Part shown: positions 8,721 through 57,390 of the stretch, in pieces
Numbering within the stretch: position 1 is the first letter of the stretch
Layout of the letters: every line of letters begins with the position of its first letter
Origin: Eledone cirrhosa
Taxonomy: Eukaryota
Length of the DNA: 64,000 nucleotides
Assembly (NCBI GenBank): GCA_964016885.1
Contig: OZ024742.1
Coordinates: forward strand, 280,054,001-280,118,000
Direction of reading: 5' to 3'
The notes under the pieces: model-generated
The model's input: the letters and a program-made list of their open reading frames with translations, nothing else
What the model was told of the DNA's origin: nothing
Databases searched by the model: none
Made by a program: the position numbers and the translations under genes

Positions 8721-9367
8721 CCTTTAATTTAACGTATCTTCGTATTAAAATCAGCGCACTGTCATCATGAAATGTATACACACTTTGGTTACCTGTACAG
8801 GCAATATTTATTAGAATGGTACATACATTTAATTTAGACAAACTACACACGCACACACACGCGCATGCACACATACACACATATATTTATATATATATAT
8901 ATATATACATAAATATGTATACATATATACTTATAGATATGAAATCTATAGAAGAAACATAATGATATATTTCGGTTGTATCTTATTATCAATATATTCT
9001 GTTGCTGACTACTTATTAAGTATAGTTTTTCTTTATAATTACAATAAGTAATTACATTTAATATAGTCAACTTGTTTTATTTGACCTTATTAGTCTCTCT
9101 TTTCCTTATCAGTTAAATATTTCGTTGTCTTATTTTGTTCACCATTTAGGATCTTATTAAACAACATACGTCAAAACCATTAATTTAGTAACTCTTGACA
9201 TTAGTATACCTAATAAATATTCGTCTATTTACTTGTCACCTTTGATCCCCCCTTGCCTATCACCTCCCAAAAATACTGAACTAGATAATTTGATCTACGG
9301 AAAGCCATCTTTTAGCGTAACTCTTTTTTTTCCCCTCTCGCTCTATATATATATATAAGAATATCAA

Positions 9368-9400
<33 letters not shown>

Positions 9401-9402
<2 letters not shown>

Positions 9403-11750
9403 CTTTATTTGCCACAAGGGCGCACAAGAAATGGGGGCAATACAGACACATGCTTGGGATTTTACATACAGTCGTGAAAAAAACAAATATAACAATCGAA
9501 ATCCCCAATATGGGGATGTGCCACAAATGGGTGTGTTTAATACCCTGTCGATAGAACAACCCTCAACTTCAGGAGAGTGTTGTGCAAGTGCTCCCTTCTT
9601 CCTTTTGCTCTCTTCTTTAACCTACAGGCCCAATGAGAGAAGGCCCAATCATTCGAGCCATTTTCGCTTCATTCACCCCCCTTTCAGTATATTTACTGGG
9701 GTGCAGTGCCTCTCTCTCCACTCTGATTCTCCTTCTAAATTGATACTTAAAGAAGGGAATCAATTGTTGTCCGGAGAGAAAGTCATTTGTCCCCAGACTC
9801 TCAATCTCGTCCAGCATTTAATCTGTGTCTCCCAGGACTGCAGCCATAGCCACTGTACAGAGGAAAACCGTCTCTCTTTCGTTTATGAAAGAGGCTGGCG
9901 GTTTGATCCTTACTATGGACTCGGCAGTCAACTTGATATGCCCCATACGCGACAGCAGTTGTTCTGCATAGTTCCACAGTACACAATTGGGTGCAAGACG
10001 GTTTCAATGTCCTGCTCGCATCTTGGACACGTGTTCTTGGAAAGATCCCTGCCGGGGCGTCCGTGCCTAAAGATCTTGTCTCGAACAGGTAGAGCTCCTC
10101 TGTAGCACTGCGGGACCAGGGACCTCTGGAAGTTTTCGATGGGTGCAGCGCGGAAAGTCTTACTGAACAGACTGGTGAGCTCGTCGTCTTCGACGCCTAG
10201 AGTCTCCCCGAGCACATCGTCGCACTTGTAAAGTACTAACCCTCTATAGAATGTCAAAGTCGAGTCACCACTGATTGCTGTGCCCGCTTTGAGCGCCTGG
10301 GTGCATTCAATGTGCCAGGCGCCCATCTTCTTTGGTCTTCGCTTGAATCAGGACTGCAGCTCCGTCAGCGAGACAAGTTGTGGGAAGGCTTGTCTTACAA
10401 ACGGTGCCCACAGCGGTTGGTCGGTGAGAAATACCTGCAGATGCCGTAGCCTCAGCGCATGTTTGCGCATCATTAGCCACGGCATGCCCAGCCCTCCGAT
10501 GGAAGGGTGTTGACTGTAGACGAATTTCCTCACCAGTGGAGCTTGCTTCTTCCACGCGAACTGGAAGAGCATGCGTTCCATCTTGGTGAGGTATTCACGG
10601 GGACAAGGCATGACAGTCAAGCGGTAGTAGATGATGGACGCTATGAAAGTGTTCGCCACCTCCGCTCGACTATTCAAAGACAGTTTGCACTCAGCCCACT
10701 TCTGGGTGAGTGCAAACACCTTCGTCGTGATCTCGTTCCAGTTCTTGTCCACCTGGAGGTCTGGACCGAACCAGACCTCGAGCAATTTCACCGGTCCTTC
10801 CGTCCAGCGTCCGACGACGCTGTCGGACGGCATCGGTTTGCCTCTCCACGTTCCGAGTTGCAAACCGACAGACTGGTTCAGGTTCACTTTTGCTCCTGTG
10901 AACCTTTCGTATTCCTGTAGTACGTTGCCGATTACCTCGATTTCCGAGGTTTTCGACACCATTACGGTTATGTCGTCGGCATAAGCCGACGCCGCTTTTC
11001 GCAGTTCCGGTTCTAAAGGTATGCCCTGCAAAATCTCCAGCTTCCGCAGTAGTGGCTCTAGAGTCAATACGTACATAATGGAGGAGAGAGGGCCTCCCTG
11101 TCGAACGGAACGCGTGTTTGCGAACGGCTCCGATATGTAGCCGTTCACCTTGACCTTCGAGCAGATGCTGGTGTGAAAAGTCTTGATCCAGCCCCTGAAA
11201 ACGGGACCGAAACCGGCCGCTTTGAGAACCGCTTCCAAGTGTCAATGGTCGACCCTATCGAATGCATTAGACTGATCTAAATTGATCAGAGCCCCACCGA
11301 AGCCGGGTTTACACCCCACCCTCTCTATGATGTATCGCATGAGGTGGAGGTTGTCGTGTATTGACCTGGTCGGGATAGCACACGTTTGCGCTTTCCCGAT
11401 CAGGTTTTCTACGACAAGCGCCAGCCTCGATGCTAGCACATTGGCCAAAATCTTTAACTCTGTGTTGAGCAGAGTTAAAGGCCTGAATTTGTTTATTTCG
11501 TCCCCCTTGTTCTCGTCTTTCCTAATCAGCGTTACTACGCCCTTGCCTGCAGAACTGGGAATTGTCTCGTTCTGCTGCCAATGCAATAGACGGCTTCGAA
11601 GAGGCCAGAGAACAAGTCCGGCATGCCTATGTAAAACTCATAGGGTAGACCATCTACACCGGGTGATTTGCGTTCCCGCAGTGGCCCAGAGCGTCCCTTA
11701 TCTCAGTGGCTGTGAGCGGTCTTCCGCAGAACTCTACGTCCATGCTCGAG
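9401..11750 (-). mobile_element. 5'-truncated Tx1-clade non-LTR retrotransposon (RT and C-terminal Cys/His motif)
   Basis: FRPLTLLNTELKIL, LDQSNAFDRVDH, RQGGPLS, AYADD, CPRC...ETVLH...C; 3' end TTTATTTGCCAC shared with the copies at 15687 and 21243. Confidence 0.92.
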
Positions 11751-11779
11751 AGATAGATAGATAGATAGATAGATATATA

Positions 11780-14051: not shown

Positions 14052-15091
14052 GATATTGTTATACTTTGGGAGGGTCATGTTGCCAATAAGAAACACACGC
14101 ACCAGTAGTTTTTACTTCAATTTACTATAATAAATTTATAAATTTAGGAATCTATAAATTTATAAATTTCCGGTTGGTTGGTTCCACAACCAGATAGTTG
14201 TTTATATATTGTCAAAGTTCTTTCGTCACACATTCCGTGACCTCTTCAGTGACTGGGGATTATTTTCTTTCTTTTTTGTGCCTCTCCTTTGTTCTGTCCT
14301 ACGCCATCTTGTTTGTTTGTGTGTGTGTGTTGTGTGCTTAGTTTGCGCATGTGTTACATCCGGGTGTCTGTGTGTGTTTATATTTTTTATTTATTTGTTT
14401 ATTTACATGTTACTGGTTGGTTGTTGTTACATGTGCGTGTGTGTTTTCATTTTGTCCTTAATTGTAAGTTGTGATCTTGCTGTTCCACTCATGTTTTCTA
14501 TTTAATTTTGGTTGGAGTTCATTTATGTTTTTTGCCTCTGTGATTTGTCTAAACATTGCGTCTTTTCTGTGTGTAGAATCTATTTGTATTTCTATGTTCT
14601 CTAATTTACACTTATGTTCTAATTTAGTATGTTGGTAGAGTACAGATGATTCCTTACTATCCCGAAGGTCTCGCCAGTGCTCATCTATCCGTTCCCCCAT
14701 ACCACGAGCTGTCTCACCTATGTACACTATATTTTTATCTCTACATTGTTCTTCAGTACATCTTATGCTATATACTACATTTTTAGTTTTACAGTTAATA
14801 TGGGGGCTTAATTTACAGATTATACATTTCTTATATATACAGGGAGGTCTTTGAAAAGTGTATGTCTTGCTAATAAGAAAAGAATCCCCAGTCACTGAAG
14901 AGGTCACATAATGTGTGACGAAAGAACTTTGACAATATATAAACAACCATCTGGTTGTGGAACCAACCAACCATCCGGAAATTTATAAATTTATAAATTC
15001 CTAAATTTATAAATTTATTATAATAAATTGAAGTGAAAGCAACTGGTGCGTGTGTTTCTTATTGGCAACATGAACCTCCCAAAGTATAACA

Positions 15092-15248: not shown

Positions 15249-18200
15249 ATTGTACGCAATCCCAGTTAAATTCTGTACTGTATATGTATAGATATAACTC
15301 GAACGTATACTTCGGTGCCTTAACGCACACATTCATATGTTATATTTAGCTACCAGCATCGGTCTCAGAATTCTGGAAATTAATCAGTCATCTTATGATT
15401 GCTACTACATTTGCATGGCTTCATAAAACCATTAAAAAGGAACCTTTTTTATGTGATTTCTCATGTACATATTTTCTTATGAGGTTCCAATTATGATAGA
15501 AAATCGATATATAAATATATATATATAAACGCTGCATTAATAAATATTAAAAAGAAAATTTATCACTGGAAAACCTCAGTGGAAACAGTTTTGATGACAT
15601 ATGTTGATATTATTACTATAACCTTCATTTCTTTACAGATTATGGTACACATATACAAGTAAGGAGGAACACACCTACATAGATATCTTTTTTATTTGCC
15701 ACTGAGCGTACAAAAATGGGACAAAACGTGACGGCGGGGGTTTTACATAAAAATAACTTTAACATTAATAAATAACAATAAACTATATATAATAAAATAA
15801 CAATTGAAATCCCCAATAGGGGGGGGGGGGGTTACTGCAGGTTTGTTTTACACCCCGTGGTTATAGAACAACCCTCAACACCAGGAACACGTTTTGTAGG
15901 TGTTCCTGTCTTCCCTCTGTTTATCTTCCTCAACCTACAGGTTTATATACAGAGAGGCCCATTCACTCGGGCCATTTTTGCCACATTCACCCACCTTTCA
16001 GCGAATTTACTGGGGTGTAGCACCTCTCTCTTCACTCTCACCTTCCTTCTGAAGTGGTACTTAAAGAAGGGGATGAGTTGTTGTCCGGAGAGAAAGGTGT
16101 TTGCGCTCAGTCCTTTTAACTTCGTCCACCATATTACCTCTCTCGCCATAGCCACCAGAGAGAGGAAAACAGCCTCTCCGTTCTTAAATGAAGGCGGCGG
16201 GGTGATCCTCACGATAGACTCAGCTGACAACTTCATGTGTCCCACACGTGTCAGTAGCTGTTCGACATAATTCAACAGGTCGGTCACCCCTGGGCACTGA
16301 ACAATTGCGTGCAGAACGGTTTCCATGTCCTGCTAGCTCTTGGAGAGGTCCTTTTGGAAGGATCTCTGCCAGGGCGTCCGTGCCCTGGACGGAAACTTCT
16401 CCCGAACAGACTGGTCAGTTCGTCCTTCTCGATGCCTATAATTTCCCCGAGAACGTCGTCGCACTTATCCTCCATTAATCACCTATAGAATGTCGAAGTA
16501 GAGTCTCTGCTGATTACCGTTTCCGCTTGGTAGAGGGCTGTGAGCGCCTGTAGGCACTCGAGGTGCCAAACACCCATTTTTGGCCTTCGCTTGACACAGG
16601 ACTGCAGCTCTGTTAGTGAAACGAGTTGTGGAAGAGCTTGTCGACAGCCACACCGGTTCACCGGTCAGGAATACCTGGAGATGGCGTAGCCTCAGCACAT
16701 GTTTGCGCATCATCAGCCACGGCATGCCCAGAAGGGTATTGACAGCAGATGAATCTCCTCACCAATGGAGCCTGTTTCTTCCAGAGGAACTTGAAGTGTA
16801 GGCGTTCCATTTTGGTAAGGTATTCGTGGGGGCAAGGCACGACTGTCAAGCGGTAGTAGATGACGGACGCTATGTAAGTGTTTGCCACCTCCGCTCGACC
16901 TTTCAAGGAGAGTTTGCACTCAGCCCACTTCTGGGTGAGTGCAAACATCTTCGCCATGACCTCGTTCCAGTTCTTGTCCACCTGGAGGTCTGGACCGACC
17001 CAGACTTCGAGCAATTTCACCGGTCCTTCCGTCCAGCGTCCAAGGACACTGTTGGAAGGCATCGGTTTGCCTCTCCATGTGCCGAGTTGCAAACCGACAG
17101 ACTTGTTTGGGTTTAGTCTTTCTCTTGTCAACGTTTCGTATTCCTGTAATAGGTTGCCGATTACCCTGATTTCCGAGGTTTTCGACACCATTACGGTTAT
17201 GTCGTCGGCATAGGCTGACGCTGCTTTCCGCAGTTCTGGTTTGATCGGGATGCCCTGCAACAGCTCCAATTTCCACAGTAACGGCTCGAGAGTCAGTACA
17301 TACAGAATGGAGGAGAGAAGGCATGCCTGACGGATGGAACGCATGATTTGGAAAGGCTCTGATAAGTAGCCATTCACCTTGACTGCCGAGCAGATGCTGG
17401 TATGCATGGCAGCGATCCAGACTCTGAACACGGGACCGAAGCCGGCCGCCTTGAGAACTACTTCCAAGTATTGATGATCGACCCTATCAAATGCCCTAGA
17501 CTGATCTAAATTGATCAGAGCCCCACCAAAGCCAGGTTTACACCCTACCCTCTCTATGATGTATCGCATGAAGTGGAGGTTGTCGTGTATGGACTTGGTC
17601 GGGATTGCACACGTTTGGGCTTCCCCCACCAGGTTCTCGACGACAAGCGCCAGCCTTGCTGCTAACACCTTGGCCAAAATCTTTAACTCTGTGTTGAGCA
17701 GAGTTAAACTCATAGGGTAGACCATCTAAACCGTGTGATTTGCGTTTCCCGCAGCGGCCTAGGGCATCTTCTATTTCTCTCGCTGTGATCGGCCTTTCGC
17801 AGCTCTCCGCATCCGTGCTCGAGAGTCGGGTACGCCGTCGAGGTAGGAGCTGAAGTCCATCACCTTGCTCGATGTACCGCTTTGCCCGAACAGTTGTGCA
17901 AAATGCTGCTGGAAGGCTGCGCACATCTGCTTGGATTCAAATATAATGCGTCCATCTTTGCCTTGCAAAGACCGAATTGTGGATTTGTTGCCATTTTTCG
18001 CCTTTGCCACTCGGGCCCAGCTAACAGCTTTGGCTCCCTCGTTTCTTAGAGCACGTGTTCTACTTCTGACAATACAACCTTCGTGTTTCACGTTGAAGAA
18101 CTGGTCTAGTGCTGTTCTCGCCGCTAGCACGTCAGCTGTACTACCATTCCTAAGTGCTTCTTCTATTTTAGCTACCAGTTCCTTTTCAGTTTTGTTTTTT

Positions 18201-18417
18201 TCTAAAGCTACTTCCTTGCTAAATGCTATTGATTCTATTCTAATTGCCCCCTTGAAAGAGCTCCACCACCTATTGTTGACGATCGTCCCCGTCAACTGGC
18301 ACTTAACTAAGGTGCTAATCCGTTTACTGTAGGCCTTACGCGCCGAGAGCGACATGTTTAGCTTCCAGTATCCGGGTCCCTGTCTATTTATTCTATCAAG
18401 GTTGAATACGCAGGTGA

Positions 18418-19090
18418 TTAATTGTGGTCTGAATAGGCAACCATGTCCATTTGTGGACAGCTTAATGTTTCCTGATTCTGTCTAATTAAAAATCTATCTA
18501 AATACGATCTAAAAGACACAGTGCGGTTACTCCACGTCCACAGTTGTGCACTTTGGAAGTCTAGTCGATATCTATCAGCCAGTTGGAATTGGCTGATGAG
18601 ATATTTGAGGCTATTACACCCCACTCTATTATCACAAGCTCCTACATAGTCCCAACGTGCGTCTAAGATGCCATTCCATTCACCCGCTAAAACTAAGGAG
18701 CGAGACGTTCCCAGGAATGGCTCCAGATGCTTGAAGAACTCTGGTCGCGATGTCCCAGTCGGGGCATACACGGCCACCAGTCTGAAAGCTCCACCTTCAC
18801 TACCATTCAAGTCCAGGACCCCCAGGCTGCCCTCCGGGTCCAAGTGGACCGTCTGTATTTTGAGAACCAAGTTTTTTCGAAACAGAACAGCAACTCCCCC
18901 TCCACCTTCTGGCTGACAGAGAGATGCGTAGATCTCAAAATCATCGAACATGGGGGATAGCTGCTGCTTGTCGTGAATTCTGGACTCGGTGATGGCTATC
19001 ACATCTATACAATGTGACCTGAGATCATTTTAAAGCTGGCCCTGTTTCCAGGACACGCCCAGGCCACGTACATTCAAACATCCAGCTTGT
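18418..19090 (-). pseudogene. Apurinic-like endonuclease domain of Tx1 ORF2
   Basis: CLNVRGL (frameshifted), IAITESR, GGGVAVL, AVYAP, LAGEWN, WTW, SYLDRF, SDH. Confidence 0.9.
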
Positions 19091-23255: not shown

Positions 23256-24200
23256 ATAATAATAAAATTGAAGACTAAAATCCAAAGAGGGCTCGATAAG
23301 GAAAATATATATCAAATATATAAGAACCGTAGAGCAAATATTTATTAAAATAACAGATTAAAGTTTAAGCAAAGAATCGCTGCTTTCACCCTTAACGGGA
23401 TCATCTGAAACTAACAAAGTCAAACTGTAAACGCAGAACTGGATATTTCAAAAAACGTTGCAGCCGGAGGAAGACAGGAAGACGATACTTTGGTTCGTGG
23501 TAACGTTCGCTGGCAAAGAACGGGAAAAAACGAATAATACGTCATTAATAGGAGCGGTGAAAAACAATTACGCGCAAAGACAAAACCACGTTTATGGTAT
23601 AAAAGAGGTCGTAGACTAATGTTCTCTTAGTACTAACTGTAATTGTAGGAATCAGGCTGATTGCCCCCTATCCGGGAAATGCCTCTCTAGTAACATTGTC
23701 TACAAATGTAAGGTTGTAACACCCACGTCCCGTAGGGCCTACATAGGGTTAACCGCCAATAGTTTCAAGCAGCGTCTTTACATGCATACCCATTCGTTTC
23801 GTTACCCTCTAAGAAGGAATATGACGTCACTTTCAGCTTATATCTGGAGTCTAAAAGACAACCACACCCAATATAAGTTACACTGGGAGATCCTAGCTAG
23901 GGCTCGATCGTATAACGGAAATAAAAGACCATGTGATCTCTGCGCCGCTGAGGCCCTGGAAATACTCTACGCTACAGACCACATCTGAAAAAAAAAATCT
24001 GAGGCAATTTCGGCTTGTAAACATAAATTGCACAAAACTTTCCTGTATTACAGCCCCACGTTATACCCGAACGGATAGCACGATCTATACGTGGATATTT
24101 TACGTCTTGATGTGGGAACTAAGTATATGTTTTGTTTATTCCTTTACTTATTTGCTTAGGTAAGTATATATTACCCATATGTTTTGTTAAGGTATGTATA
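23253..24200 (+). mobile_element. PLE GIY-YIG remnant preceded by an inverted degenerate pLTR
   Basis: 23635 onward NCNCRNQADCPLSGKCL...IVYKC...YIGLTANSFKQRLYMH...TSLSAYIWSLK...WEILARA...CDLCAAE; degenerate minus-strand HHR (CAGATGA-TCCC...GGGT-GAAA) at ~23375-23410. Confidence 0.85.
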
Positions 24201-24202
24201 CC

Positions 24203-24284
24203 TTCACTCTTAGTACGGCACTTACTTAAATGTAAGTATGTATGTATACGTACATACATATACGTATACAGACGTACAGTAGCA

Positions 24285-24326
<42 letters not shown>

Positions 24327-24917
24327 TACATACAGGTACACATACATATATGTACGTATCAGTTTATCGGACGTTTATTATAACGCCCGCTTTGTCCGTT
24401 TGGAAACAAACTGACAGCCTGAATTTATGCCGTACGGTGTTAAGGCAACCACGTCACCTTTTTGTTCAACACTGACACAGGAACGATGTACTAGTTTCAA
24501 GCTTCTTAGCTATCATCGTATACATACATACTTACATTTAAGTAAGTACCGTACTAAGAGTGAGAAATGAAATTTCGTTTTCATTTTATTACAACTTATC
24601 GCTTTCGGTGCGCCTGGCCGACTGAACTCACTCGATATGCAAATTAGGCTGCTCAGCCGTTAATTTTCATAAGGAAAGTATATACTTTCGAACGTTCAAC
24701 GATCTGGCAGAAGGATATACGGTGCTGATGATAGCTAAGAAGCTTGAAACTAGTACATCGTTCCTGTGTCAGTGTTGAACAAAAAGGTGACGTGGTTGCC
24801 TTAACACCGTACGGCATAAATTCAGGCTGTCAGTTTGTTTACAAACGGACAAAGCGGGCGTTATAATAAACGTCCGCTAAACTGATACGTACATATATGT
24901 ATGTGTACCTGTATGTA

Positions 24918-24973
<56 letters not shown>

Positions 24974-25492
24974 TGCTACTGTACGTCTGTATACATATAT
25001 GTATGTACGTATACATACATACTTACATTTAAGTAAGTGCCGTACTAAGAGTGAGAAATGAAATTTCGTTTTCATTTTATTACAACTTATCGTTTTCGGT
25101 GCGCCTGGCCGACTGAACTCACTCGATATGCAAATTAGTCTGCTCAGCCGTTAATTTTCATAAGGAAAGCATATACTTTCGAACGTTCAACCATCTGGCA
25201 GAAGAGTATACGGTGTTGGTGATAGCTAAGAAGCTTGAAACTAGTACATCGTTCCTGTGTCAGTGTTGAACAAAAAGGTGACGTGGTTGCCTTAACACCG
25301 TACGGCGTAAATTCAGGCTGTCAGTTTGTTTCCAAACGGACAAAGCGGGCGTTATAATAAACGTCCGCTAAACTGATACGTACATATATCTATGTGTACC
25401 TGTATGTATATATGTATATATATATATATATATATGCATGCTACTGTAATTCTGTATACATATATGTATGTACGTATACATACATACTTACA
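24203..25492. repeat. HHR family G locus: one inverted partial unit plus two tandem ~490-bp units
   Basis: 24203-24517 minus; HHR cores at 24725 and 25216 (period 491, including an internal TA tract). Confidence 0.9.
24719..24761 (+). ncRNA. Minimal type I hammerhead ribozyme (family G)
   Basis: ACGGTG-CTGATGA-T-AGCT AAGA AGCT-T-GAAA-CTAG-TA-CATCGT; predicted cleavage after GUA at 24755. Confidence 0.9.
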
Positions 25493-25581
25493 TATATAAA
25501 ACATATATATATATAAATTATATGTATATATATATATATATATAAATATATATTATATATATATAATATATATATATAAAT

Positions 25582-25714: not shown

Positions 25715-26208
25715 GTTTTAATATAGATGAGATTCTACAGGACTAGAACTGTTTCATTCTTTAGAAATCATCAGGAATCTGGGTATCAAAAAATAAGTAT
25801 GGTATTTATAGGTCTCTACATGTGGTGGAGAGGGTGGGGAGTGGGATGGGTGTAGGTCATTGGTTGATAGAAAAGGGAATTCATTAAAAGCTAATTCTAC
25901 AAAGCTATAGTTTACTTTTGTTACTCTAAAAACAAAAATAAACTATAGCTTTGTAGAATTAGCTTTTAATGAATTCCCTTTTCTATCAACCAATGACCTA
26001 CACCCATCCCACTCCCCACCCTCTCCTACCACTTGTAGAGACCTATAAATACCATATTTATTTTTTGATACCCAGATTCCTGATGATTTCTAAAGAATGA
26101 AACAGTTCTAGTCCTGTAGATTCTCATCTATATTAAAACTGTTATACTCTGCAATGTATTGAGTACCTTACTTACTGTGGTTACCTCCGATTCAACCCGG
26201 AATAACGC
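25715..26208. mobile_element. HHR family A fold-back: ~200-bp arms plus a ~70-bp tail
   Basis: 25715-25913 is inverted against 25939-26139; CTGATGA-TTTCTAAAGAAT-GAAACAGTT...AACTG-TT on the plus arm; TA flanks. Confidence 0.9.
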
Positions 26209-26336: not shown

Positions 26337-26912
26337 TACATTATGAAGAGAGAAGAAACATTTAGATATAATTAGTAATAAAATGTATCATACCTAAACT
26401 GCTCCTAAATTCCTCGACTACGTAGTTTCGTGGCATAAACAAAAACAATATATCAAAGATATAGAGTCATTGCGAGGTCTGCCGACTTATCAAGAGGATA
26501 CCTCATTTTACTAGTCTTAAGAACGCGTCTACACGACGTGAGAAAGAATCCCAAAAGGCGGAGGGGGAGATAGTCACGCGATATAACGGTCGAGAAACAG
26601 AGCTAAGCCTCCTATAACCACGAAGAAAATACCACGGAGGCGGAGGGGGTATTCATATCGAGGCCGTAGAAGAGGTAGTGAAGAAGGCGAGAAGTATGAG
26701 TAATGGAAGCTTTCCAGTTGTCCCCACACTTCAAAGATTGCTCGACCAGAGGGAGTTATTAATATATTTAGAAACACACAGATACATGCGGACACACACA
26801 TATATACATGAATGCATCCGCACCCAACTGGCACCCTTAACTCACAGTTGGGTGCGGATGCATTCATGTATATATGTGTGTGTCCGCATGTATCTGTGTG
26901 TTTCTAAATATA

Positions 26913-27055: not shown

Positions 27056-27409
27056 CGATATTAAACAAATGGAAATTACATTTATAAAACCATAATTATT
27101 TCATTATATATATATTTCAGGGATATCATATTAAAATATGGTATGCCCTCTTCAGACAAAGTACAATATATAGACAGTTTTATAAATAAATTTGACATAC
27201 CTTAGAGTTTACAACTTCGATTTAAAAAGTTGTTACGGTATTTTAATATGATATCCCTGAAATATATATAATGAAATAAATATGGTTTTTTAAATGTAAT
27301 TTCCATTTGTTTAATATCGTAAAATACTCCAAAACTTGTTGAGTGCTTTTATATCAGTTATAAAATATTTACTCGTTGTAACCCAACATTTTAAATAAAA
27401 CTTTTGCAG
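27056..27409. mobile_element. HHR family B fold-back with tail
   Basis: 27056-27140 is inverted against ~27238-27319; minus-strand CTGAAGA-GGG...CCC-T-GAAA; homologous to 46905-47353. Confidence 0.82.
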
Positions 27410-27455
27410 ATAGATATATATATATTATATATATTTATATATATAAATATATAAA

Positions 27456-27675: not shown

Positions 27676-27739
27676 ATATATAATAATATATATATATATA
27701 ATACATATATATATATAATATATTTAATATATTGGTACA

Positions 27740-28860
<1,121 letters not shown>

Positions 28861-32390: not shown

Positions 32391-33092
<702 letters not shown>

Positions 33093-33134
33093 ATATATAT
33101 ATAGTTTTTTTTTGTTATGTTCTAAATTCCAGCT

Positions 33135-33240: not shown

Positions 33241-35042
<1,802 letters not shown>

Positions 35043-36515: not shown

Positions 36516-38158
36516 TATTACTTCAAAATATTAATAAATATAGACATTCATGTGATCAAATATATTTTATTATACATATTTCAGAGATACTGAGCTATTT
36601 CAACAGTACGTCCTCATCAGATAAAATAAGTCGATGCCTGATATACCTTGACTATGTTGATGGTTATAATTTAGTCATGGCAGTGATTAGTTATGACAAC
36701 ACTCGAAATTTATATACCTTAAGTTGAAACATGAAAAAGTATATATAATACAGAGAGTGCGTAACGCTTTTATTATTTATACTAGTATTAATATTAGATT
36801 AAGGGTTTCTACCTTAACATTGAAAGTGTTAATCTGATCTCTTGTTGAGTACGTATGACCTTTAGATTGTTTAAATGCATTTAATTTTGATTTCCTATTT
36901 CCTAAATGTTATATCTTATATATTTGATACGTTTAATCTATTCAGGCTTGTAAACCGTTTATTTACTTTGAATGGTTATTTACGATTCACGAGGATTTGA
37001 TTATACATTTATAGTATAAAAGTCTCCTTAGATCCAAGTTGATACATTTTTTTGTATACTTAAATTGATGTAAAAGTTTAAATTCAGTAAAATCTAGTTG
37101 AATTATATTTATAACATTCTCAACAGAAATTATACTACATATAAGTGACTAATATCGTATTAAACCTTAAAATTTATAGTCTATATATAAATTATATAAA
37201 TGTGTATATCTACATAAATCTGGTTTAATAATATCTTATTAGATACATTTATAATGCTTTATGACTTATTAATAACATTTTAATTTTAAGGTTTTTTTTT
37301 ACTAATATATTGATTATATTCTTGATTTTAATAAACTTGTAAATATACTTGTGAATACCTTTGCAGCTATGACAGACATAAATTTATCTCTTTCACGTTA
37401 CATTTGCTTGAACTCATATATGATACAATAATATAAATCCTTTAAAATGTTATAGTCTAAAATCTTATGTCATTTGATTAATTGACTATTTTCAATTAAC
37501 TTAAGATTTGAAAATAAACGGTCATTCATTATTCTTTCCCTCTATCCAATTATACGCTATTTACATGTTACCATGCATATCTTTCTCCCTTTGATTATAC
37601 GATTAACTTATTTTCCTCTCTCTATCATTTGATCATTTTTCTCTTTTCTTGTTCCTACGATCACATCTCCTTTTTTTATTTTTTCTCTTTTTCTCTCTTT
37701 CCTCATGATTTGCTATCTCGATCTATAACTTCAACTATCAACAATAATGAGGTATGAATATATTACTATTATTTAAATTTATAACAGTTATATAAGTTTA
37801 TGTATTATATATTATTAATTATTTATATATCTTTTTACACAATCTCATACGCACCCTCTGTATTATATGTACTTTTTGATGTTTCAACTTAAGATATATA
37901 AATATCGAGTTTTGTCATAACTAATCACTGCCATGCCTAAATTATCAACATAGTCAAGGTATGTCAGGCATCAACTTATTTTATCTGATGAGGACGTACT
38001 GTTGAAATAGCTCAATATTGAAATATGTATAATAAAATATATTTGCTCACATGAATGTCTATATTTATTAATATTTTGAAGTAATATTAAAAACTCCAGA
38101 AAACCTACCTGTACAGTGAAACTTTATTCATTGATGAATTCATTGAACCTTGTTAAAC

Positions 38159-39007: not shown

Positions 39008-40799
39008 TAAAGCGAAGTAGTTTCAGATGTTCAAGTCCTTTAATAATAATGCTGTGATATATATTTCAATGACGACACTGGCCACACTGTTCTGTGTGCG
39101 AGTGTCGTGAATTCATCAGACAGCTTGTTACATAATAAGGTTGTTTCCGAGGCAATCCAAATTGAATCGACATGGGAACGGACGAAGTTCGTGCTTTTGG
39201 GTTTTTCATCCGTTCCCTTGTGAGTACCAATTCACCTCCATCGGTCTGCGCAAGCGCATGTCCGAAGGAAGTTGACCATTAGCACCGCAGATTTCAACGA
39301 AATTCGCTGTCAGTGGCCCACCTATGCCTTGCCAAAGCTTACTGCTACCATCGCTACTGTGGCAGTCAGCCGAAAGCCAGAGGGGATGGGAGGGTGTTAG
39401 TTTTTATAGGTCATAATACTACCTTTCACTAAGCGTTGACAGTAAGACTGACCATCAACTCATAAGGTAAAATAAACTTAATTCTAGGTACTATGGTTTT
39501 ACATAGTAAGTTAAGAGTGACAGTTGGGAATAAAAATTAAAATTAAAGGTTAAAATCCTAAATCAAATATCAGAGATTATAAATTAAACAATAAAGAATT
39601 CAAAAATTCTAAATTCAAAAATTTTTCAAGTAATAATTCGGATTAAGTAAAGATATACATTGAAGTGAGTAAATAATATGGAGAGAGATGTTTAAGTAAT
39701 ATGTTCTGGGAGGGATTCTAGTGTTACAGATATTGAACGGCAGTGCCGGACCTTATAACGGGGGGCGAACCACATGGTTCAAGGCATTAGTCAATCCGCT
39801 ACACGGTCATACTTTCCATCACATGGAACAGAGTCAAAGAAAAACAGACAAAAAGTACACAAAAGAGAACACAAAAGAAAAGAAAAGAACAGAGACAATA
39901 GTGAATAAATGCAAAAACACAGAGTACATATATGTAAAATGATCCATATGATTGTCCATCTGTCCATGTATAGATTGAATTGAGGGGGCCTCTGTTCAGA
40001 AGCGATTTGGTGCAGGAAAATAGGGGTTTATCTTATTTTTTGTCTCCGCGTATTTATCCTGCCGAAAGATACTATTACGCCCGTCCAGTGTCAGGGGTTT
40101 TTCATCCCCATGGTAGAGGGGATTTCCGGGTAGCTCTAGGTTGGTTCCTCTCTTCTCCACCATATCGGTTACATCATAGAGCGCTCAACTAATCGGAGCT
40201 TAATTATTAGGGTAAACATGTAAAACCATAGTACCTAGAATTAAGTTTATTTTACCTTATGAGTTGATGGTCAGTCTTACTGTCAACGCTTAGTGAAAGG
40301 TAGTATTATGACCTATGAAAACTAACACCCTCCCATCCCCTCTGGCTTTCGGCTGACTGCCACAGTAGCGATGGTAGCAGTAAGCTTTGGCAAGGCTTAG
40401 GTGGGCCACTGACAGCGAATTTCGTTGAAATCTGCGGTGCTAATGGTCAACTTCCTTCGGACATGCGCTTGCGCAGACCGGTGGGGGTGAATTGGTACTC
40501 ACAAGGAAACGGATGAAAAACCCAAAGCACGAACTTCGTCCGTTCCCATGTCGATTCAATTTGGATTGCCTCGGAAACAACCTTATTATGTAACAAGCTG
40601 TCTGATGATGTCACGACACTCGCACACAGAACAGTGTGGCCAGTGTCGTCATTGAAATATATATCACAGCATTATTATTAAAGGACTTGAACATCTGAAA
40701 CTACTTCGCTTTTACTTATTCGATATTTACTCCGTCACTCCTATGTGGTAAAAGTACGTTGAGTGCTTGAATTGAATTGCATCAATATTTACCCTAATA
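39008..40799. mobile_element. HHR family C: 1.2-kb minus-sense arm plus a 0.58-kb inverted arm, non-coding
   Basis: 39008-39503 is inverted against 40219-40713; HHRs at 39051-39124 (-) and 40597-40670 (+); TA flanks. Confidence 0.9.
40597..40670 (+). ncRNA. Type I hammerhead ribozyme (family C)
   Basis: GCTGT-CTGATGA-[ACGACACT..CACAC/GTGTG..AGTGTCGT]-GAAA-TATATA-TC-ACAGC; predicted cleavage after AUC at 40665. Confidence 0.9.
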
Positions 40800-41500: not shown

Positions 41501-42614
41501 TAAGAATTAAAATACTAGAGTGTGTTGGAGTTAAACACCCTCTTCATATTATAGAAATGACAGTAAAGATATAGCTCAATGTAATTAAACAGAGCCGAAG
41601 AATTATGAAAATAAACCAAAGAAGCCTTCAATACATCAAAAGTCTTTATTAGCCAACAATGTTTCGTCCTATTAAGGACTCATCAGGGCAAGTAAAGCTA
41701 TAAGAAGCGCTATCGGCCAATACAAGCCAAAAACTCAGAAGAATATGGAGTATACATACATTAAAGCATAGGAAAATTATCAAGTAAAAATTGCTAAGGA
41801 AGTGAATAACATTTTGAACCATATTACAAATATAGTACAATGCAAAAACTAAAACTAAACACAAGTGGTGATATAAAGCGAGAATTACAGTAAGATATAT
41901 AATATTATATAATATAATATAATATATATAACAACTTCAATATGAAATATCAAACATAGTATAGTATACATAATTACATGGTTGGTAGACAGACATATGT
42001 GAATAAGTGAACAAGAACCAGACAGAAACTACGCACGGTAGTGAAAAAATATAAATAAAATCAACCGGAAATCGAAAAACAAAAACAAATATGAATATAT
42101 TTACTTAGGTGTCACAAGCAGTATTAAATATTTATATTTAAACTCTTAATAAGTGTTAGTTTGTGTTTGTATTGATGGATATGTGTATTGATATATATAT
42201 ATGTACATATGTATATATATATATATGTATATTGGGCCTTTTAATATTATTATTATTATCATTATCAATTATATTATATTATATTATATTATATTATATT
42301 ATATTATATTATATTATATTATATATCATACTGTAATTCTCGCTTTATATCACCACTTGTGTTTAGTTTTAGTTTTTGCACTGTACTATATTTGTAATAT
42401 GGTTCAAAATGTTATTCACTTCCTTAGCAATTTTTACTTGATAATTTTTTTATGCTTTAATGTATGTATACTCCATATTCTTCTGAGTTTTGGGGTTGTA
42501 TTGGCCGATAGTGCTTCTTATAGCTTTACTTGCCCTGATGAGTCCTTAATAGGACGAAACACTGTTGGCTAATAAAGACTTTTGATGTATTGAAGGCTTC
42601 TTTGGTTTATTTTC

Positions 42615-42619
<5 letters not shown>
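41501..42619. mobile_element. HHR family D fold-back: ~300-bp arms, tail on the left
   Basis: 41602-41910 is inverted against ~42310-42619; HHR on both arms. Confidence 0.9.
42532..42570 (+). ncRNA. Consensus-like minimal hammerhead (partner at 41651-41690, minus strand)
   Basis: GCC-CTGATGA-GTCC TTAATA GGAC-GAAA-CACTG-TT-GGC. Confidence 0.92.
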
Positions 42620-43190: not shown

Positions 43191-43295
43191 CTGTATTTTT
43201 AACCGTTGGTCAATCAATGATAAACATTGATTGCCAAATAAATTAACTATGGAGATATAAGGTATACAGAAGCGAAAAAAAAAACAACCATAGTT
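42820..43295 (+). mobile_element. pLTR remnant of the 14052/38240 type with a degenerate HHR
   Basis: TACCA-CTGATGG-TGTTGCA GATA TGCAAC-GAAA-GAAC-TT-TGATA at 43111-43154. Confidence 0.65.
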
Positions 43296-43299
43296 TACT

Positions 43300-44572
43300 G
43301 CTACCCGTCCCGTCTGTGGCAGTCAGCCGAAAGCCAGAGGGGATGGGAGAGTGTTATTTTTTACAGTTCACAATACTACCCCTCACCAAGCATGGACAGT
43401 ACGACTGACCATCAACTCCCAAGAGAAAATATACTTAATTCTAGGTATCATGGTTTTACATTGGAAGTTATGTGTGAGAGCTGGAAATAAAAATTAAAAA
43501 TCAAAAATTATAAATTTAAAAAATTATAAATTAAACAATTATAAAATTAACAATTAGAAATTAAAAAATGTTTCAAGTGAGAATCCGGATTGAGGTGAGT
43601 AAAAAGACATATGGATTGAAGTGAGTAAATGATATGGAGAGAGATGTTTAAGTAAGAAGTTCTGAGAGGGGTTCCAATGTGACAGTTACACTATCCACAT
43701 ATTGAACGATAGTGCCGTACATTAGAATGGAGGGTAAACTACAGTATTCAAGGCACTAGTCAATCTGGTACACAGTCATAATTTCCATCACATGGAACAA
43801 AACTAAAGAAAAACATATATAAAGTACACAAAAGAAAAGAATCAATAATGAATAAATTCAAAAACACAGAGTACATATATGCAAAATGATCCATATGATT
43901 GTCAATTTGTCAATGTATAGATTCAATTGAGGGGGCTTCTGTTCAAAAGCGATTTGGTGCAGGAAAATATGGCTTCATATTAGTTTTTGTTTCCGCGTAT
44001 TTATCCTGCCGAAAGTTACTATTATGTCCATCTAGTTTCAGGGGTTTCCATCCCCATGGTAGAGGGAATTTCCAGGGGTAGCTCATGGTTGGTTCCTCTC
44101 TTCTCCACCATATCGGTTACATCATAGAGCGCTCAACTAGTTGGAGCTAAATTCTTAGGGTAAATATTGATGCAATTCAATTCAAGCACTCAACGTACTT
44201 TTTCCACATAGGAGTGACGGAGTAAATATCGAATAAGTAAAAGCGAAGTAATTTCAGATGTTCAAGTCCTTTAATAATAATGCTGTGGTATATATTTGAA
44301 TTACGACACTGGCCACACTGTTCTGTGTGCGAGTGTCCTGACATCATCAGGCAGCTTGTTACATAATAAGGTTATGTTTCCGAGGCAATCCAAGTTGAAT
44401 TGACATGGGAACGGACGAAGTGTGTGCTTTTGGGTTCTTCATCCGTTCCACTGTGAGTACTAATTGACCACCACCGGTCTGCGCAGGCGCATGTCCGAAG
44501 GAAGTTGACCATTAGCTACCGCAGATATCAACGAAATGCACTTAGTCAGTTCACCCTCTCAGCCAAACAATG

Positions 44573-46158: not shown

Positions 46159-46869
46159 ATGAAGGCCCACATCACCAGCAGCCCTAGGAGCAACACCCAA
46201 CCAGGATGCTCTTGCCGTAAGCCTGAAGCTTTCCCCCTTCAACAACAATGCAACAAACCAACTGTAATCTATGAAGCGGTTGTCACTTCCAACCGACCAA
46301 ACGAACCACAGGAGGTCAAATCCTATGTGGGCATGGTGGAGGGCCGATTCAAGGAGCGTTTCCTGAACCACCAGTCTACCTTCAGATACCCGGACAGACG
46401 TTCATCCACGAAACTCGCGAGCCACGTATGGAAAGCCATCACTAAGTCCAAGCCATACGCATGTGGAAATTCGACGTTTGGCTTATGTATTGACGAACGA
46501 ATAACTATCCTGAAGAGATTACGCAATAGTGATTGCCTAAATACGAGAAGTGAATTTTTCACACGTTGTTCACACGTCACCAAACATCTATTGCATAACT
46601 ACAAGCCTCCGGACTAATTCTTTGTAATTTTATTTTTAGATTTTTTAAATTTTATATTCAACCAAAAAACTTTCCGGTCTTTCGCAGTTATCTCCCTTAC
46701 ACCCCCCGCACGCACTCTACTATTGCCTGTGTGAAGTGACCGAGTTTCTGCGCATGCGCGTTCGTACGGTCGTCCTTCCTGTTCCTATAACCATATACAT
46801 CCCGAGCTGAAGATCCGCGAATGTGAAACAATTGTTCTCGGTATGGTGAACTAACTGTTGTGTAACAAC

Positions 46870-46872
<3 letters not shown>
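46159..46872 (+). mobile_element. PLE 3' remnant: GIY-YIG ORF and pLTR with intact HHR core (46802-46841)
   Basis: GCSCRKPEAFPLQQQC..VIYEA...YVGMVEGRFKERFLNH...TKLASHVW...LNTRSE...CSH*; CCGAG-CTGAAGA...GAAA-CAATTG-TT-CTCGG. Confidence 0.88.
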
Positions 46873-47478
<606 letters not shown>

Positions 47479-47713: not shown

Positions 47714-48013
47714 GTGAAGATCCCCCGTTGTAATAGAAACACAGTTAAAATATCCTATTCAACCAATTCCAACTTCGCACGCAACATCACTGCATCTAAC
47801 TCAGCCAAATTTCTTTGTAGTAATATAAACAATCTTGATGTTTGTTCTTTCTACAATTGTATCAATACGAACTATTGCCCTCTAGTCGGGAAATGCCTAT
47901 CAAGCAATATAGATTACAAATCTAAGTTTGATATACCCAGTACTAGAAAAACTTACATAGGGTTCACTGCCAGTAGATTTAAGCAGCCTCTTAATTATCC
48001 GAAGCGAGTATAA
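47714..48013 (+). pseudogene. PLE linker and GIY-YIG N-terminal fragment
   Basis: NRNTVKISYS...NCINTNYCPLVGKCL...YK...TYIGFTASRFKQ. Confidence 0.82.
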
Positions 48014-49162: not shown

Positions 49163-50996
49163 ACAATATATTTAGAAACACACAGATACATGCGGACACA
49201 CACATATATACATGAATGCATCCGCACCCAACTGTGAGTTAAGGGTGCCAACTTCACCGATGTTGCTCAATGAATGACCGGGACAGACCAATTCAGTTGA
49301 ACTAGACTGAACCAGTATCAGAGTTAAAAATACATTATGAAGAGAGAAGAAACATTTAGATATAATTAGTAATAAAATGTATCATACCTAAACTGCTCCT
49401 AAATTCCTCGACTACCTAGTTTCGTGGCATAAACAAAAACAATATATCATAAAGACATAGAGTCCCTGCGAGGTCTGCCGACTTATCAAGAGGATACCTC
49501 ATTTTACTAGTCTCAAGAACGCGTCTACACGACGTGAGAAAGAATCCCAAAAGGCGGAGGGGGAGATAGTCACGCGATATAACGGTCGAGAAACAGAGCT
49601 AAGCCTCCTATAACCACGAAGAAAATACCACGGAGGCGGAGGGGGTATTCATATCGAGGCCGCAGAAGAGGTGGTGAAGAAGGCTAGAAGTATGAGTAAT
49701 GGAAGCTTTCCAGTTGTCCCCACACTTCAAAGATTGCTCGACCAGAGGGAGTTATTAACAATATATTTAGAAACACACAGATACATGCGGACACACACAT
49801 ATATACATGAATGCATCCGCACCCAACTGTGAGTTAAGGGTGCCAACTTCACCGATGTTGCTCAATGAATGACCGGGACAGACCAATTCAGTTGAACTAG
49901 ACTGAACCAGTATCAGAGTTAAAAATACATTATGAAGAGAGAAGAAACATTTAGATATAATTAGTAATAAAATGTATCATACCTAAACTGCTCCTAAATT
50001 CCTCGACTACGTAGTTTCGTGGCATAAACAAAAACAATATATCATAAAGACATAGAGTCCCTGCGAGGTCTGCCGACTTATCAAGAGGATACCTCATTTT
50101 ACTAGTCTCAAGAACGCGTCTACACGACGTGAGAAAGAATCCCAAAAGGCGGAGGGGGAGATAGTCACGCGATATAACGGTCGAGAAACAGAGCTAAGCC
50201 TCCTATAACCACGAAGAAAATACCACGGAGGCGGAGGGGGTATTCATATCGAGGCCGCAGAAGAGGTGGTGAAGAAGGCTAGAAGTATGAGTAATGGAAG
50301 CTTTCCAGTTGTCCCCACACTTCAAAGATTGCTCGACCAGAGGGAGTTATTAACAATATATTTAGAAACACACAGATACATGCGGACACACACATATATA
50401 CATGAATGCATCCGCACCCAACTGTGAGTTAAGGGTGCCAACTTCACCGATGTTGCTCAATGAATGACCGGGACAGACCAATTCAGTTGAACTAGACTGA
50501 ACCAGTATCAGAGTTAAAAATACATTATGAAGAGAGAAGAAACATTTAGATATAATTAGTAATAAAATGTATCATACCTAAACTGCTCCTAAATTCCTCG
50601 ACTACGTAGTTTCGTGGCATAAACAAAAACAATATATCATAAAGACATAGAGTCCCTGCGAGGTCTGCCGACTTATCAAGAGGATACCTCATTTTACTAG
50701 TCTCAAGAACCCGTCTACACGACGTGAGAAAGAATCCCAAAAGGCGGAGAGGGAGATAGTCACGCGATATAACGGTCGAGAAACAGAGCTAAGCCTCCTA
50801 TAACCACGAAGAAAATACCACGGAGGCGGAGGGGGTATCCTCTTGATAATTCGGCAGACCTCGCAGGGACTCTATGTCTTTATGATATATTGATTTTGTT
50901 TATGCCACGAAACTACGTAGTCGAGGAATTTAGGAGCAGTTTAGGTATGATACATTTTATTACTAATTATATATAAATGTTTCTTCTCTCTTCATA

Positions 50997-51000
<4 letters not shown>
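49161..51000. repeat. HHR family H: ~2.8 tandem 595-bp units plus an inverted terminal segment
   Basis: TAACAATATATTTAG at 49161, 49756 and 50351; units almost identical; inversion at ~50835; one HHR per unit. Confidence 0.95.
50000..50089 (-). ncRNA. Type I hammerhead with U3-A8 core (family H; also 49405-49494 -, 50595-50684 -, 50838-50927 +)
   Basis: TCCTC-TTGATAA-GTCGGCA...TGCCAC-GAAA-CTACGTAG-TC-GAGGA; GUC cleavage triplet. Confidence 0.85.
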
Positions 51001-51067
<67 letters not shown>

Positions 51068-54417: not shown

Positions 54418-54763
<346 letters not shown>

Positions 54764-54790
54764 ATATATATATATATATGTATATATATA

Positions 54791-56414
54791 TAAGTATGTA
54801 TACGTACATACATATATGTATACAGACGGACGTACAGTAGTATGTATATATATATATACATGCACACGTATATATATGTACGTATGGATTTACCGTACAT
54901 TTATTATAATGCTCGGTTTGTTTGTAAACAAACATCCCGAATTAAGCCGTACAGTGTATAGCAACCATCGTTGCCCTTTTTGTTCAACACTGACAAAGGA
55001 ACGATGTACTAGTTTCAAGCTTATTAGCTATCGTCAGCACCGTATACCTTCCTACCAGATGATTGAACATCTGAAAGTATATACTTTCCTTATGCATATT
55101 AACGGCTGAGCAGCCCAATTTGCATATCAAGTGAGTTAATCGGCCGGGCGCACCGAAAACGATAAATGAAAAAAATGAAACGAAATTTCATTTCTCACTC
55201 TTAGTACGGCTGTTACTTAAATATAAGTATGTACACCTACGTACATATATGTATACAGACGTACAGTAGTATGTATATACATACATACATGCGCACATAT
55301 ATATATGTACGTATGGATTTACAGTTTATTTATTATAATGCTCGGTTTGTTTGTAAACAAACATCCCGAATTAAGCTGTACAGTGTTTAACAACCATCGT
55401 TGCCCTTTTGTTCAACACTGACAAAGGAACGATGTACTAGTTTCAAGCTTATTAGCTATCGTCAGCACCGTTTACCTTCTTGCCAGATGATTGAACGTCT
55501 GAAAGTATATACTTTCCTTATTTCATGTTAACGGCTGAGCACCCCAATTTGCATATCGAGTAAGTTAATCGGCCGGGCGTACCGAAAACGATAAATGGAA
55601 AAAAATGAAACGAAATTTCATTTCTCACTCTTAGTACGGATGTTACTTAAATATAAGTATGTACACCTACGTACATATATGTATACAGACGTACAGTAGT
55701 ATGTATATATATACATACATGCACACATATATATATGTACGTATAGGATTTACCGTACATATATTATAATGCTCGGTTTGTTTGTAAACAAACATCCCGA
55801 ATTAAGCAGTACAGTGTTTAGCAACCATCGTTGCCCTTTTCTTCAACACTGACAAAGGAACGATGTACTAGTTTCAAGCTTATTAGCTATCGTCAGCACC
55901 TTATACCTTCCTGCCAGATGATTGAACGTCTGAAAGTATAAACCTTCCTTATGCATATTAACGGCTGAGCCCGGCCGATTAACTTATGCATATTAATGGC
56001 TGCGCCCGGCTGATTAACTCACTCGATATGCAAATTGGGCTGCTCAGCAGTTAATATGCATAAGGAAAGTATATACTTTCAGACGTTCAATCATCTAGCA
56101 GGAAGGTATACTGTGCTGACGATAGCTAATAAGCTTGAAACTAGTACATCGTTCCTTTGTCAGTGTTGAACAAAAGGGCAACGATGGTTGCTAAACACTG
56201 TACGGCTTAATTCGGGATGTTTGTTTACAAACAAACCGAGCATTATAATAAATGTACGGTAAATCCATACGTACATATATATATGTGTGCATGTATGTAT
56301 ATATATACATACTACTGTACGTCTGTATACACATATGTATGTACGTGTACATACTTATATTTAAGTAACAGCCGTACTAAGAGTGAGAAATGATATTTCG
56401 TTTCATTTTTTTCA

Positions 56415-56418
<4 letters not shown>
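54791..56418. repeat. HHR family G: about three tandem ~430-bp minus-sense units plus one inverted unit
   Basis: HHRs with CTGACGA core at 55001-55043, 55429-55471 and 55860-55900 (-) and 56110-56152 (+); periods 428 and 431; inversion at ~55970-56020. Confidence 0.93.
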
Positions 56419-56474
<56 letters not shown>

Positions 56475-56524
56475 TGGATAATTTCTCCTAAATGAAACAG
56501 TTCTAGTCCTGTAGAAGCCTTTTG

Positions 56525-56567
<43 letters not shown>

Positions 56568-56573
<6 letters not shown>

Positions 56574-57386
56574 CGTTTAACAAGGTTCAACGAAAATACA
56601 TCCGTAGGACGCGAGATAGAATCCCGAAAGGCGGAGGGTTAGTCAATCACGTGATATAGCGGTTAAGAAACAGAGCTAAGCCTCGTGCAACCAAGAAACA
56701 AATACCACAAAAGGCGGTGGGGGTATTTATATTTATGTATATGTATGTGTGCGCATGTATCTGTGTATTTCTTAATATTGTTTCTAACTCCCTATGGTAG
56801 AGTAACCATTAAAGTGTAGTGACTGCTGGAAAGCTATCATTACTTATATTGTCAGTATCTGTAGAGGGTTGGACGCCATTCTTTCTAGCATAATTACGTC
56901 CCATTACGATCTGAGTTCAAATCCCGCCGAGGTTGACTTTGCCTTTCATCCTTACGGGGTCGATAACATAAAGTACCAGTAATACACTGGATTATTGCTG
57001 GCCTTGTGCCTAAAGTAGAAACAATTACATATAATTCTCGCCATCCTAGCCATCTCTTATACGGCTTTGATATAAATACCCCCGCCGCCTTTTGTGGTAT
57101 TTTTTTCTCGGTTGTAAGAGGCTTAGCTCTGTTTCTTAACCGCTATATCATGTGATTGACACCCCCTCCGCCTTTCGGGATTCTATCTCGCGTCCTACGG
57201 ATGTGTTTTGAAACTCTTAATGAGGTATCTTCTTGATAAGTCGGCAAACCTCACAAAGATTACTATATGTTTGTGATGTAGTGTTTTTGCATAGTATGCC
57301 ACGAAACTACGTAGTCGAGGACTAATTAAGGAACTTGGGTATGGTATATATTATTAATTATATCTAATTTATCTTCTTTCTTTATA

Positions 57387-57390
<4 letters not shown>
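56568..57390. mobile_element. Diverged family H fold-back with a SINE near its centre
   Basis: 56598-56730 is inverted against ~57073-57205; HHR TCTTC-TTGATAA...GAAA-CTACGTAG-TC-GAGGA at 57228-57321. Confidence 0.85.
56853..57027 (+). mobile_element. tRNA-derived SINE
   Basis: B-box GAGTTCAAATCC followed by GCCTTTCATCCTTACGGGGTCGATAA...GAAACAATT. Confidence 0.85.

Follow-up and report, generated by a model that had tools for sequence, protein, structure and literature searches.

The repeat family examined here (family G), a non-coding tandem unit of about 430 bp, is probably a non-autonomous retroelement of the non-LTR retrozyme kind, which would borrow both the reverse transcriptase (RT) and the GIY-YIG endonuclease from a Penelope-like element (PLE). 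Mobilisation by PLE machinery is itself very likely and, given such mobilisation, there is a good chance that the hammerhead ribozyme (HHR) carried by each unit cleaves and that RNA circles are formed. The class to which such an element belongs, animal non-LTR retrozymes, is already known, and what is new is the presence of a PLE-type end signature on a retrozyme-type unit.

Units and loci of the repeat family

The 64-kb stretch of DNA that was analysed (the window) is AT-rich animal DNA, dense in (TA)n tracts and mobile-element fragments, in which family G is present at three loci (A, B and C) that total about 3.5 kb. One SINE and the density of microsatellites suggest that the DNA is from a cephalopod, probably an octopus. 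At locus C, TRF reports 2.7 copies with a period of 429 and 93% matches (54788-55970), and BLASTN with one unit finds further copies at 56003-56420 (inverted), 24204-24517 (inverted), 24533-25483 and 32497-33098. The main arm of locus C (54788..55970, minus strand) consists of 2.7 head-to-tail units, is 5'-truncated at 55970, and is joined head-to-head to an inverted arm of about one unit (56003..56420, plus strand), which is also 5'-truncated; a 35-bp duplication (TRF 55948-56019, period 35, 2.1 copies) spans the inversion point at the junction (55971..56002). At locus A, a short inverted arm (24204..24517, minus strand), which begins within the HHR core, is joined head-to-head to a main arm of about two units of a diverged subfamily (24518..25493, plus strand). 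Locus B (32495..33098, plus strand) holds about 1.6 units with an internal deletion of about 89 nt and a degraded HHR (32877-32919), with (TG)77 and (TA)50 upstream. Measured from cut to cut, the monomers are 431 and 428 nt at locus C and 491 nt at locus A, the latter with an expanded TA tract.

No stop-to-stop frame on a dimer exceeds 67 codons, and the unit therefore has no protein-coding capacity. A frame of 139 codons (54690-55109, antisense strand), for which no Pfam match was found, enters the repeat from the flank. The preliminary description of this DNA, which reported three loci with tandem units and an inversion, one HHR per unit and no meaningful ORF, is thus confirmed by TRF, BLASTN, an HHR descriptor and the length of the longest frame. 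The monomer is predicted to be highly self-paired (-124 kcal/mol, z = -5.15, 0 of 100 shuffles as low), partly due to its self-complementary TA/CA tract. ARAGORN detected 0 tRNAs, leaving a tRNA-SINE origin without support, and exact-pattern scans returned 0 matches in metagenome contigs, prokaryotic genomes and viral contigs, which is expected of an animal repeat.

Outside the TA-rich tract, and with the inverted arms included, identity is 92-98% within locus C and 96-98.5% within locus A, compared with 76.5-90% between loci. At locus C, 42 of the 45 variable columns are private to one copy or to the end of one arm. Given this high identity within loci and the mostly private variation at locus C, each locus looks, from its sequence, like one insertion event in which one variant was copied several times.

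Other mobile-element fragments in the window include two LINE copies, both broken, at 9359-11764 and 15782-19029; they are 82% alike over 1.3 kb and have domains for RT and AP-endonuclease. A DDE_3 transposase and a Helitron-like Pif1 helicase have also left remnants (7052-7477 and 34137-34562).

Fixed 3' ends and the PLE-type insertion signature

Copies of the unit stop at either of two fixed points separated by 59 nt, End1 lying 214 nt and End2 273 nt downstream of the predicted ribozyme cut, whereas their 5' ends are all different. End1 is found at 54788 and 25493 and End2 at 56420 and at approximately 33094-33098, where locus B stops at End2 or 4 nt short of it and is followed by a short TA tract. 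Four of the five 3' ends in the window fall on one of these two points, each running into a TA tract; the fifth (24204) lies about 30 nt into the interval between them, in non-TA DNA. The preliminary description had noted that two loci end at the same point, and this shared end is real and corresponds to End1, but it is only one of two fixed ends, the second lying about 59 nt further on.

Head-to-head inverted, 5'-truncated arms are found at two of the three loci (A and C). At locus C, the main arm stops at End1 and continues into a (TA)n tract, and the inverted arm stops at End2 and continues into (TA)27. As one arm ends at each of the two sites, the interval from End1 to End2 forms a tail at one end of the locus only (56361..56420, plus strand, about 60 nt). 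Any target site duplication (TSD) would be hidden by the (TA)n on both sides, and none is discernible. In the predicted folds of the locus C and locus A units, a short hairpin has End1 in its loop, and End2 immediately follows a longer hairpin on the 3' side; the first unit of locus B is predicted to fold differently from these.

A tail, an inverted 5'-truncated copy adjoining the 5' end, a bias towards (TA)n and tandem copies are hallmarks of PLEs (PMC8557442), and by analogy the fixed ends with a tail, the inversions and the (TA)n targets of family G are a PLE insertion signature. In vitro, AT-rich DNA is nicked on both strands by the protein of an anole PLE, which initiates reverse transcription at two internal positions downstream of the HHR; the tail is the interval between them, and HHR cleavage is unnecessary (PMC11167929). 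The EN+ PLEs Poseidon PAc, Neptune, Hydra and Naiad share with family G the tandem and inverted 5'-truncated arms, the tail at one end, the two fixed ends downstream of the HHR and the (TA)n targets (PMC8557442, PMC11167929). They differ in having an RT-EN ORF, a usual tail of 30-40 bp rather than one of about 59 nt, ends about 90 nt past the cut rather than 214 and 273 nt, and a minimal rather than canonical HHR. The unit of family G contains no ORF for RT and GIY-YIG endonuclease, which sets it apart from autonomous EN+ PLEs.

This end polarity, with fixed 3' and variable 5' ends, already largely refutes the idea that the family is a DNA-level satellite, or a derivative of a DNA or rolling-circle transposon, in which the HHR motif is incidental. 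Three of the 45 variable columns at locus C do hold short local variants common to adjacent units, which indicates a degree of local conversion or slippage, but the arrays are short and dispersed, no terminal inverted repeats besides the inverted arms were found at the three loci, and the HHR descriptor gives one match in the real unit and none in 20,000 dinucleotide shuffles of it. Such an origin is considered extremely improbable.

Given that every end feature is PLE-like and that most PLE insertions are 5'-truncated, it might also be argued that these copies are mere 5'-truncated pLTR remnants of a coding PLE, with no independent life. The preliminary description had raised the case that the unit is only the pLTR of a coding PLE, yet in all five complete passes in the window, what separates End2 and the tail from the next HHR is about 120 nt of DNA that is non-coding and free of ORFs. 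Remnants of GIY-YIG endonucleases are present in the window at 4401-5411, 23638-24027, 27733-28011, 46159-46611, 47726-47986 and 14458-14982, and five of them match the C-terminal region of unnamed PLE-type proteins of about 700 aa; three full-length relatives had no Pfam match above the cut-off. One remnant (23638-24027) ends about 180 bp from locus A, but the adjacent arm of the repeat is in the opposite orientation and the two have no sequence in common, and this remnant was rejected as the parent of the family. No sequence common to family G and the PLE remnants or their flanks was found in the window (best BLASTN E = 0.31), nor, within these 64 kb, any terminal sequence shared with an autonomous PLE family. 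As the tail leads to the next HHR through non-coding DNA, and as no PLE remnant in the window matches the unit, family G is most likely a non-autonomous passenger, and an existence purely as pLTR remnants is improbable. A rare coding parent would still fit an element that borrows PLE proteins.

Public contig data point in the same direction with regard to the pLTR explanation. These data comprise three runs (X1-X3) of one sample, the kind of which is unrecorded and which is perhaps the source of the window itself, and contain 53-56% of the sampled words. Contigs matching one unit (query 54860-55288) number 16,102, 14,724 and 14,813 in the three runs. Summed word depth on the unit, which is no copy number, is 0.37-3.3 million per bin compared with 4-23 for single contigs listed, and suggests at least 10^4 copies if the runs are DNA. 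The summed depth is of the same order along the whole unit, contigs join the unit to itself, and there is no shared extension beyond the unit among the rows listed, all of which argues against that explanation.

The positions of End1 and End2 were fixed from the window before the contig data were examined. Among the 18 of 802 rows listed, loose ends joined to (TA)n pile up at 55162, which matches End2 (46, 41 and 44 contigs in X1-X3), and at 55221, which matches End1 (32 contigs, listed for X1), and the other loose ends represent the TA tract at the edge of the query and diverged variants. Joints within contigs, among the 15 of 28 listed, comprise seven between opposite strands, six skips and two that step back by one unit.

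Several other repeats in the window also lie between TA tracts. A 595-bp non-coding tandem family (49213-51002, 26339-26866 and 56593-57389), the units of which are 99% identical, has an anatomy like that of family G, with a tandem arrangement, an inverted 5' piece, (TA)n flanks and shared ends. Neither of its strands has a CUGANGA core, its Rfam matches all fall below threshold or are lacking, and it is possibly a ribozyme-free non-autonomous PLE or the carrier of an unrecognised ribozyme. A repeat of about 500 bp (39009-40796 and 43288-44550) is arranged in inverted fashion, with arms 98% alike and flanking TA tracts.

The hammerhead ribozyme

Each unit carries one type I HHR with a CUGANGA core and a GAAA segment. 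Helix I has 6 bp, helix II has 4 bp above a U.U, and helix III is palindromic and 4 nt long; the cleavage site is UA. A distal extension of helix I with an internal loop is also predicted, and canonical type I HHRs have tertiary contacts between loop 1 and loop 2. Position names such as N7 follow the hammerhead numbering. There are seven complete copies in the window, of which three are fully intact: two that are consecutive in locus C (55429..55471 and 55001..55043, minus strand, predicted cuts after 55435 and 55007) and one in locus A (24719..24761, plus strand, after 24755). A further two have an intact core and one mismatch in stem I (55860..55902, minus strand, predicted cut after 55866, and 56110..56152, plus strand, after 56146), one has two core substitutions and is predicted to be inactive (25210..25252, plus strand, after 25246), and one is degraded (near 32913). 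A partial copy lies near 24489. Across the seven copies, 65 of 70 stem cells are paired and no pair is altered on both sides, so that covariation was not detected among them, and the core is the same between subfamilies that are only about 83% alike, with the exception of N7. The Rfam HHR models gave no match to the unit at the gathering score, nor at E <= 10, and Rfam E-value scans returned only sub-threshold miRNA and snoRNA matches, mostly on the TA tract.

The HHR had been described as minimal in the preliminary description, a word that is wrong for this ribozyme, as its helix sizes (helix I of 6 bp, helix II of 4 bp on the U.U, and a palindromic helix III) are canonical for type I by published definitions (PMC4209133). 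In the min-HHR of PLEs, helix II is long (7-8 bp) with G10.1-C11.1, helix I is short and helix III is absent or reduced (PMC4209133). Judged by its sequence, the HHR of family G is the canonical metazoan type I form and not the PLE min-HHR.

Whether this ribozyme is active is the point at which the favoured reading meets its main rival. In the latter, family G is a non-autonomous PLE minisatellite with a weak or silent HHR, a passenger from a pLTR, and read-through multimers serve as the RT template with no monomer or circle accumulating. Damage to four of the seven complete copies and low predicted occupancy of the active fold both count against an active ribozyme. Folding models, which leave out tertiary contacts, Mg2+ and protein, place the active fold approximately 3.4 kcal/mol above the ensemble per HHR, with predicted occupancies of 0.4-1% for the three intact copies, approximately 0 for a mismatched copy and 0.05% in the circle, and a double hammerhead offers no gain over two monomer folds (6.6 vs 6.8 kcal/mol). 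In addition, HHR mutants of the anole PLE insert unaffected in vitro, with no reads ending at the HHR site (PMC11167929), and eight of nine predicted Xenopus retrozyme dimers were uncleaved (10.64898/2026.07.22.740005). Among the 18 of 802 rows listed, there is also no pile-up of loose contig ends at the cut (55006/55007).

Against a silent passenger stand the canonical helix sizes, which are not those of the PLE min-HHR (PMC4209133), and the conservation of the core between the diverged subfamilies. Furthermore, cleavage and circles are known for an axolotl HHR whose helix II likewise has a U.U at its base and whose helix III has 2 bp (PMC7229834). The common contig variants, among the rows listed, would also leave stem I paired. 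Variants were taken from 40 of 61 rows, at 38 positions, and at least four of these positions fall within the HHR, one being N7, one in loop 2 and two forming a single stem-I pair. The latter two change at 55040 (to U in 47-50%, to A in 21-23%) and at 55004 (to G in 40-44%), which would preserve the pair as U.G or A-U if the variants are phased, and the G.U, U.G and A-U states occur at matching frequencies. Within the same 40 rows, no variant was seen at the 12 core positions, which is not significant (P = 0.33), nor at 34 core and other stem positions (P = 0.043). On balance, a weak or silent HHR seems rather unlikely, and cleavage by the HHR remains the favoured reading.

An octamer motif (55118..55125, minus strand) is located some 80 nt upstream of the HHR core and is present in all six copies that span the site, with copies of family G holding six of the 11 octamers in the window. 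Octamers are an element of snRNA promoters. The motif was chosen after being noticed and also arose in 149 of 5,000 shuffles; as a candidate internal promoter it is no more than a lead. An snRNA-type promoter is ascribed to newt satellite 2 in a secondary mention (PMC2220036), and a review describes retrozymes as apparently without promoters (PMC7761336).

HHR-like motifs also occur elsewhere in the window. Motifs with a long helix II are found at 46903-47358, 27056-27412, 36567-36763 and 37848-38035, the first two within short head-to-head inverted elements between (TA)n tracts that resemble truncated PLE pLTRs. An inverted pair of arms of about 290 bp (41602-42619), with TA tracts on both sides, has in each arm a CUGAUGA core, a 5-bp helix II and GAAAC, and a short family with CUGAUGA...GAAAC (1064-1268, 2385-2544, 25715-26205 and 56477-56531) sits just past the TA tract that borders locus A as well as locus C. 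Immediately upstream of locus C, a CUGAAGA...GAAAC motif occurs in a short element whose arms are inverted (54516-54696 and 46772-46872). A loose contig end at 54974 (X2) belongs to a diverged variant of family G. This variant has a 14-nt stretch that recurs immediately upstream of the HHR core in the 36620 family, a hint that the two families are related or chimeric, with few contigs at that far end of the consensus.

Proposed mobilisation and relation to known retrozymes

In the mechanism proposed here, tandem arrays would be transcribed by read-through or from an internal promoter, and the type I HHR, aided by dimerisation via its palindromic helix III or by protein, would cut the multimers to monomers of about 430 nt, which a host ligase could circularise, as for the class in general. 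The end positions in the DNA place the start of reverse transcription inside the RNA, 214 or 273 nt past the HHR cut, presumably by a PLE protein that nicks (TA)n DNA. The arrays cross the predicted cut site unbroken, three times in the main arm of locus C, which shows that reverse transcription passes the site up to three times. The template is therefore no linear monomer but either a circle or an uncleaved multimer, between which the DNA does not discriminate. Priming from both target strands would produce head-to-head 5'-truncated arms, one ending at each site, which is the anatomy observed at locus C.

Non-LTR retrozymes of coral, mussel and axolotl, and newt satellite 2, are short tandem non-coding units of 150-450 bp with one type I HHR each (PMC7229834); where retrozymes have a TSD, it is longer than 4 bp. 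Family G resembles these metazoan elements in this and in its low GC content and self-paired monomer, and its HHR is like the axolotl HHR_Amex2 in the U.U at the base of helix II and the short helix III; HHR_Amex2 cleaves weakly alone but well as a dimer, and yields circles (PMC7229834). It differs in that its unit falls at the upper limit of their size range, contains an internal TA/CA tract and has no discernible TSD. Every sequence-level feature of a non-LTR retrozyme is found in family G, with cleavage and circular RNA being predicted. The retrozyme layout put forward in the preliminary description is supported by the tandem non-coding units of 428-431 nt with one type I HHR each, the structured monomer and the very high abundance, but that description had overlooked the two fixed 3' ends, the (TA)n targets and the inversions.

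The choice between retrozyme and pLTR is partly a false one, as a 2026 preprint argues that animal retrozymes derive from PLEs as non-autonomous elements, with one of nine predicted Xenopus dimers cleaved in vitro (10.64898/2026.07.22.740005). The pLTR-derived retrozymes of Xenopus are, like family G, HHR-bearing tandem repeats, mostly with < 7 units, but their link to PLEs consists of co-occurrence and pLTR homology in vertebrates, whereas that of family G consists of insertion ends, with no homology to a coding PLE (10.64898/2026.07.22.740005). The non-autonomous PLEs of Chlamys, such as MRC1, are also non-coding and inserted as multiple head-to-tail copies by PLE machinery; unlike family G, they are green algal, are mostly without a canonical HHR, and have 3' sequence in common with a known autonomous partner (PMC8557442).

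Among the titles and beginnings of abstracts searched, none described a retrozyme from a cephalopod or one bearing a PLE tail, with subscription journals being mostly outside the search and supplements possibly listing the family. The word 'tail' has 0 occurrences in two retrozyme papers checked, and a word search of PMC7229834 gave no mention of a tail, inverted arms or microsatellite targets on retrozymes. The words 'ribozyme' and 'hammerhead' are absent from the main text of a 2026 repeat annotation of Octopus vulgaris (PMC13282606). Family G is of very high abundance, and repeat libraries may contain it without a classification.

In a more far-reaching version of the favoured reading, family G would be a circular-RNA retrozyme of high abundance and probably the first described from a cephalopod-type genome. 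Its circle would carry a two-site PLE initiation cassette (End1 in a hairpin loop, End2 at a hairpin base) opposite the ribozyme, and perhaps its own octamer or snRNA-type promoter. This version is put forward tentatively, as a possibility somewhat against the odds. For the enzyme behind the mobility of animal retrozymes, PLEs have been proposed from co-occurrence and pLTR homology (10.64898/2026.07.22.740005). As the RT start points in family G are exactly placed and lie apart from the ribozyme cut, retrozyme mobilisation, including the form of RNA used, becomes testable with a short RNA. If the circular-RNA reading is true, these loci would provide direct genomic evidence of PLE RTs priming internally on RNA circles from both strands of (TA)n targets, and the family would offer a minimal 430-nt substrate for the study of PLE mobilisation.
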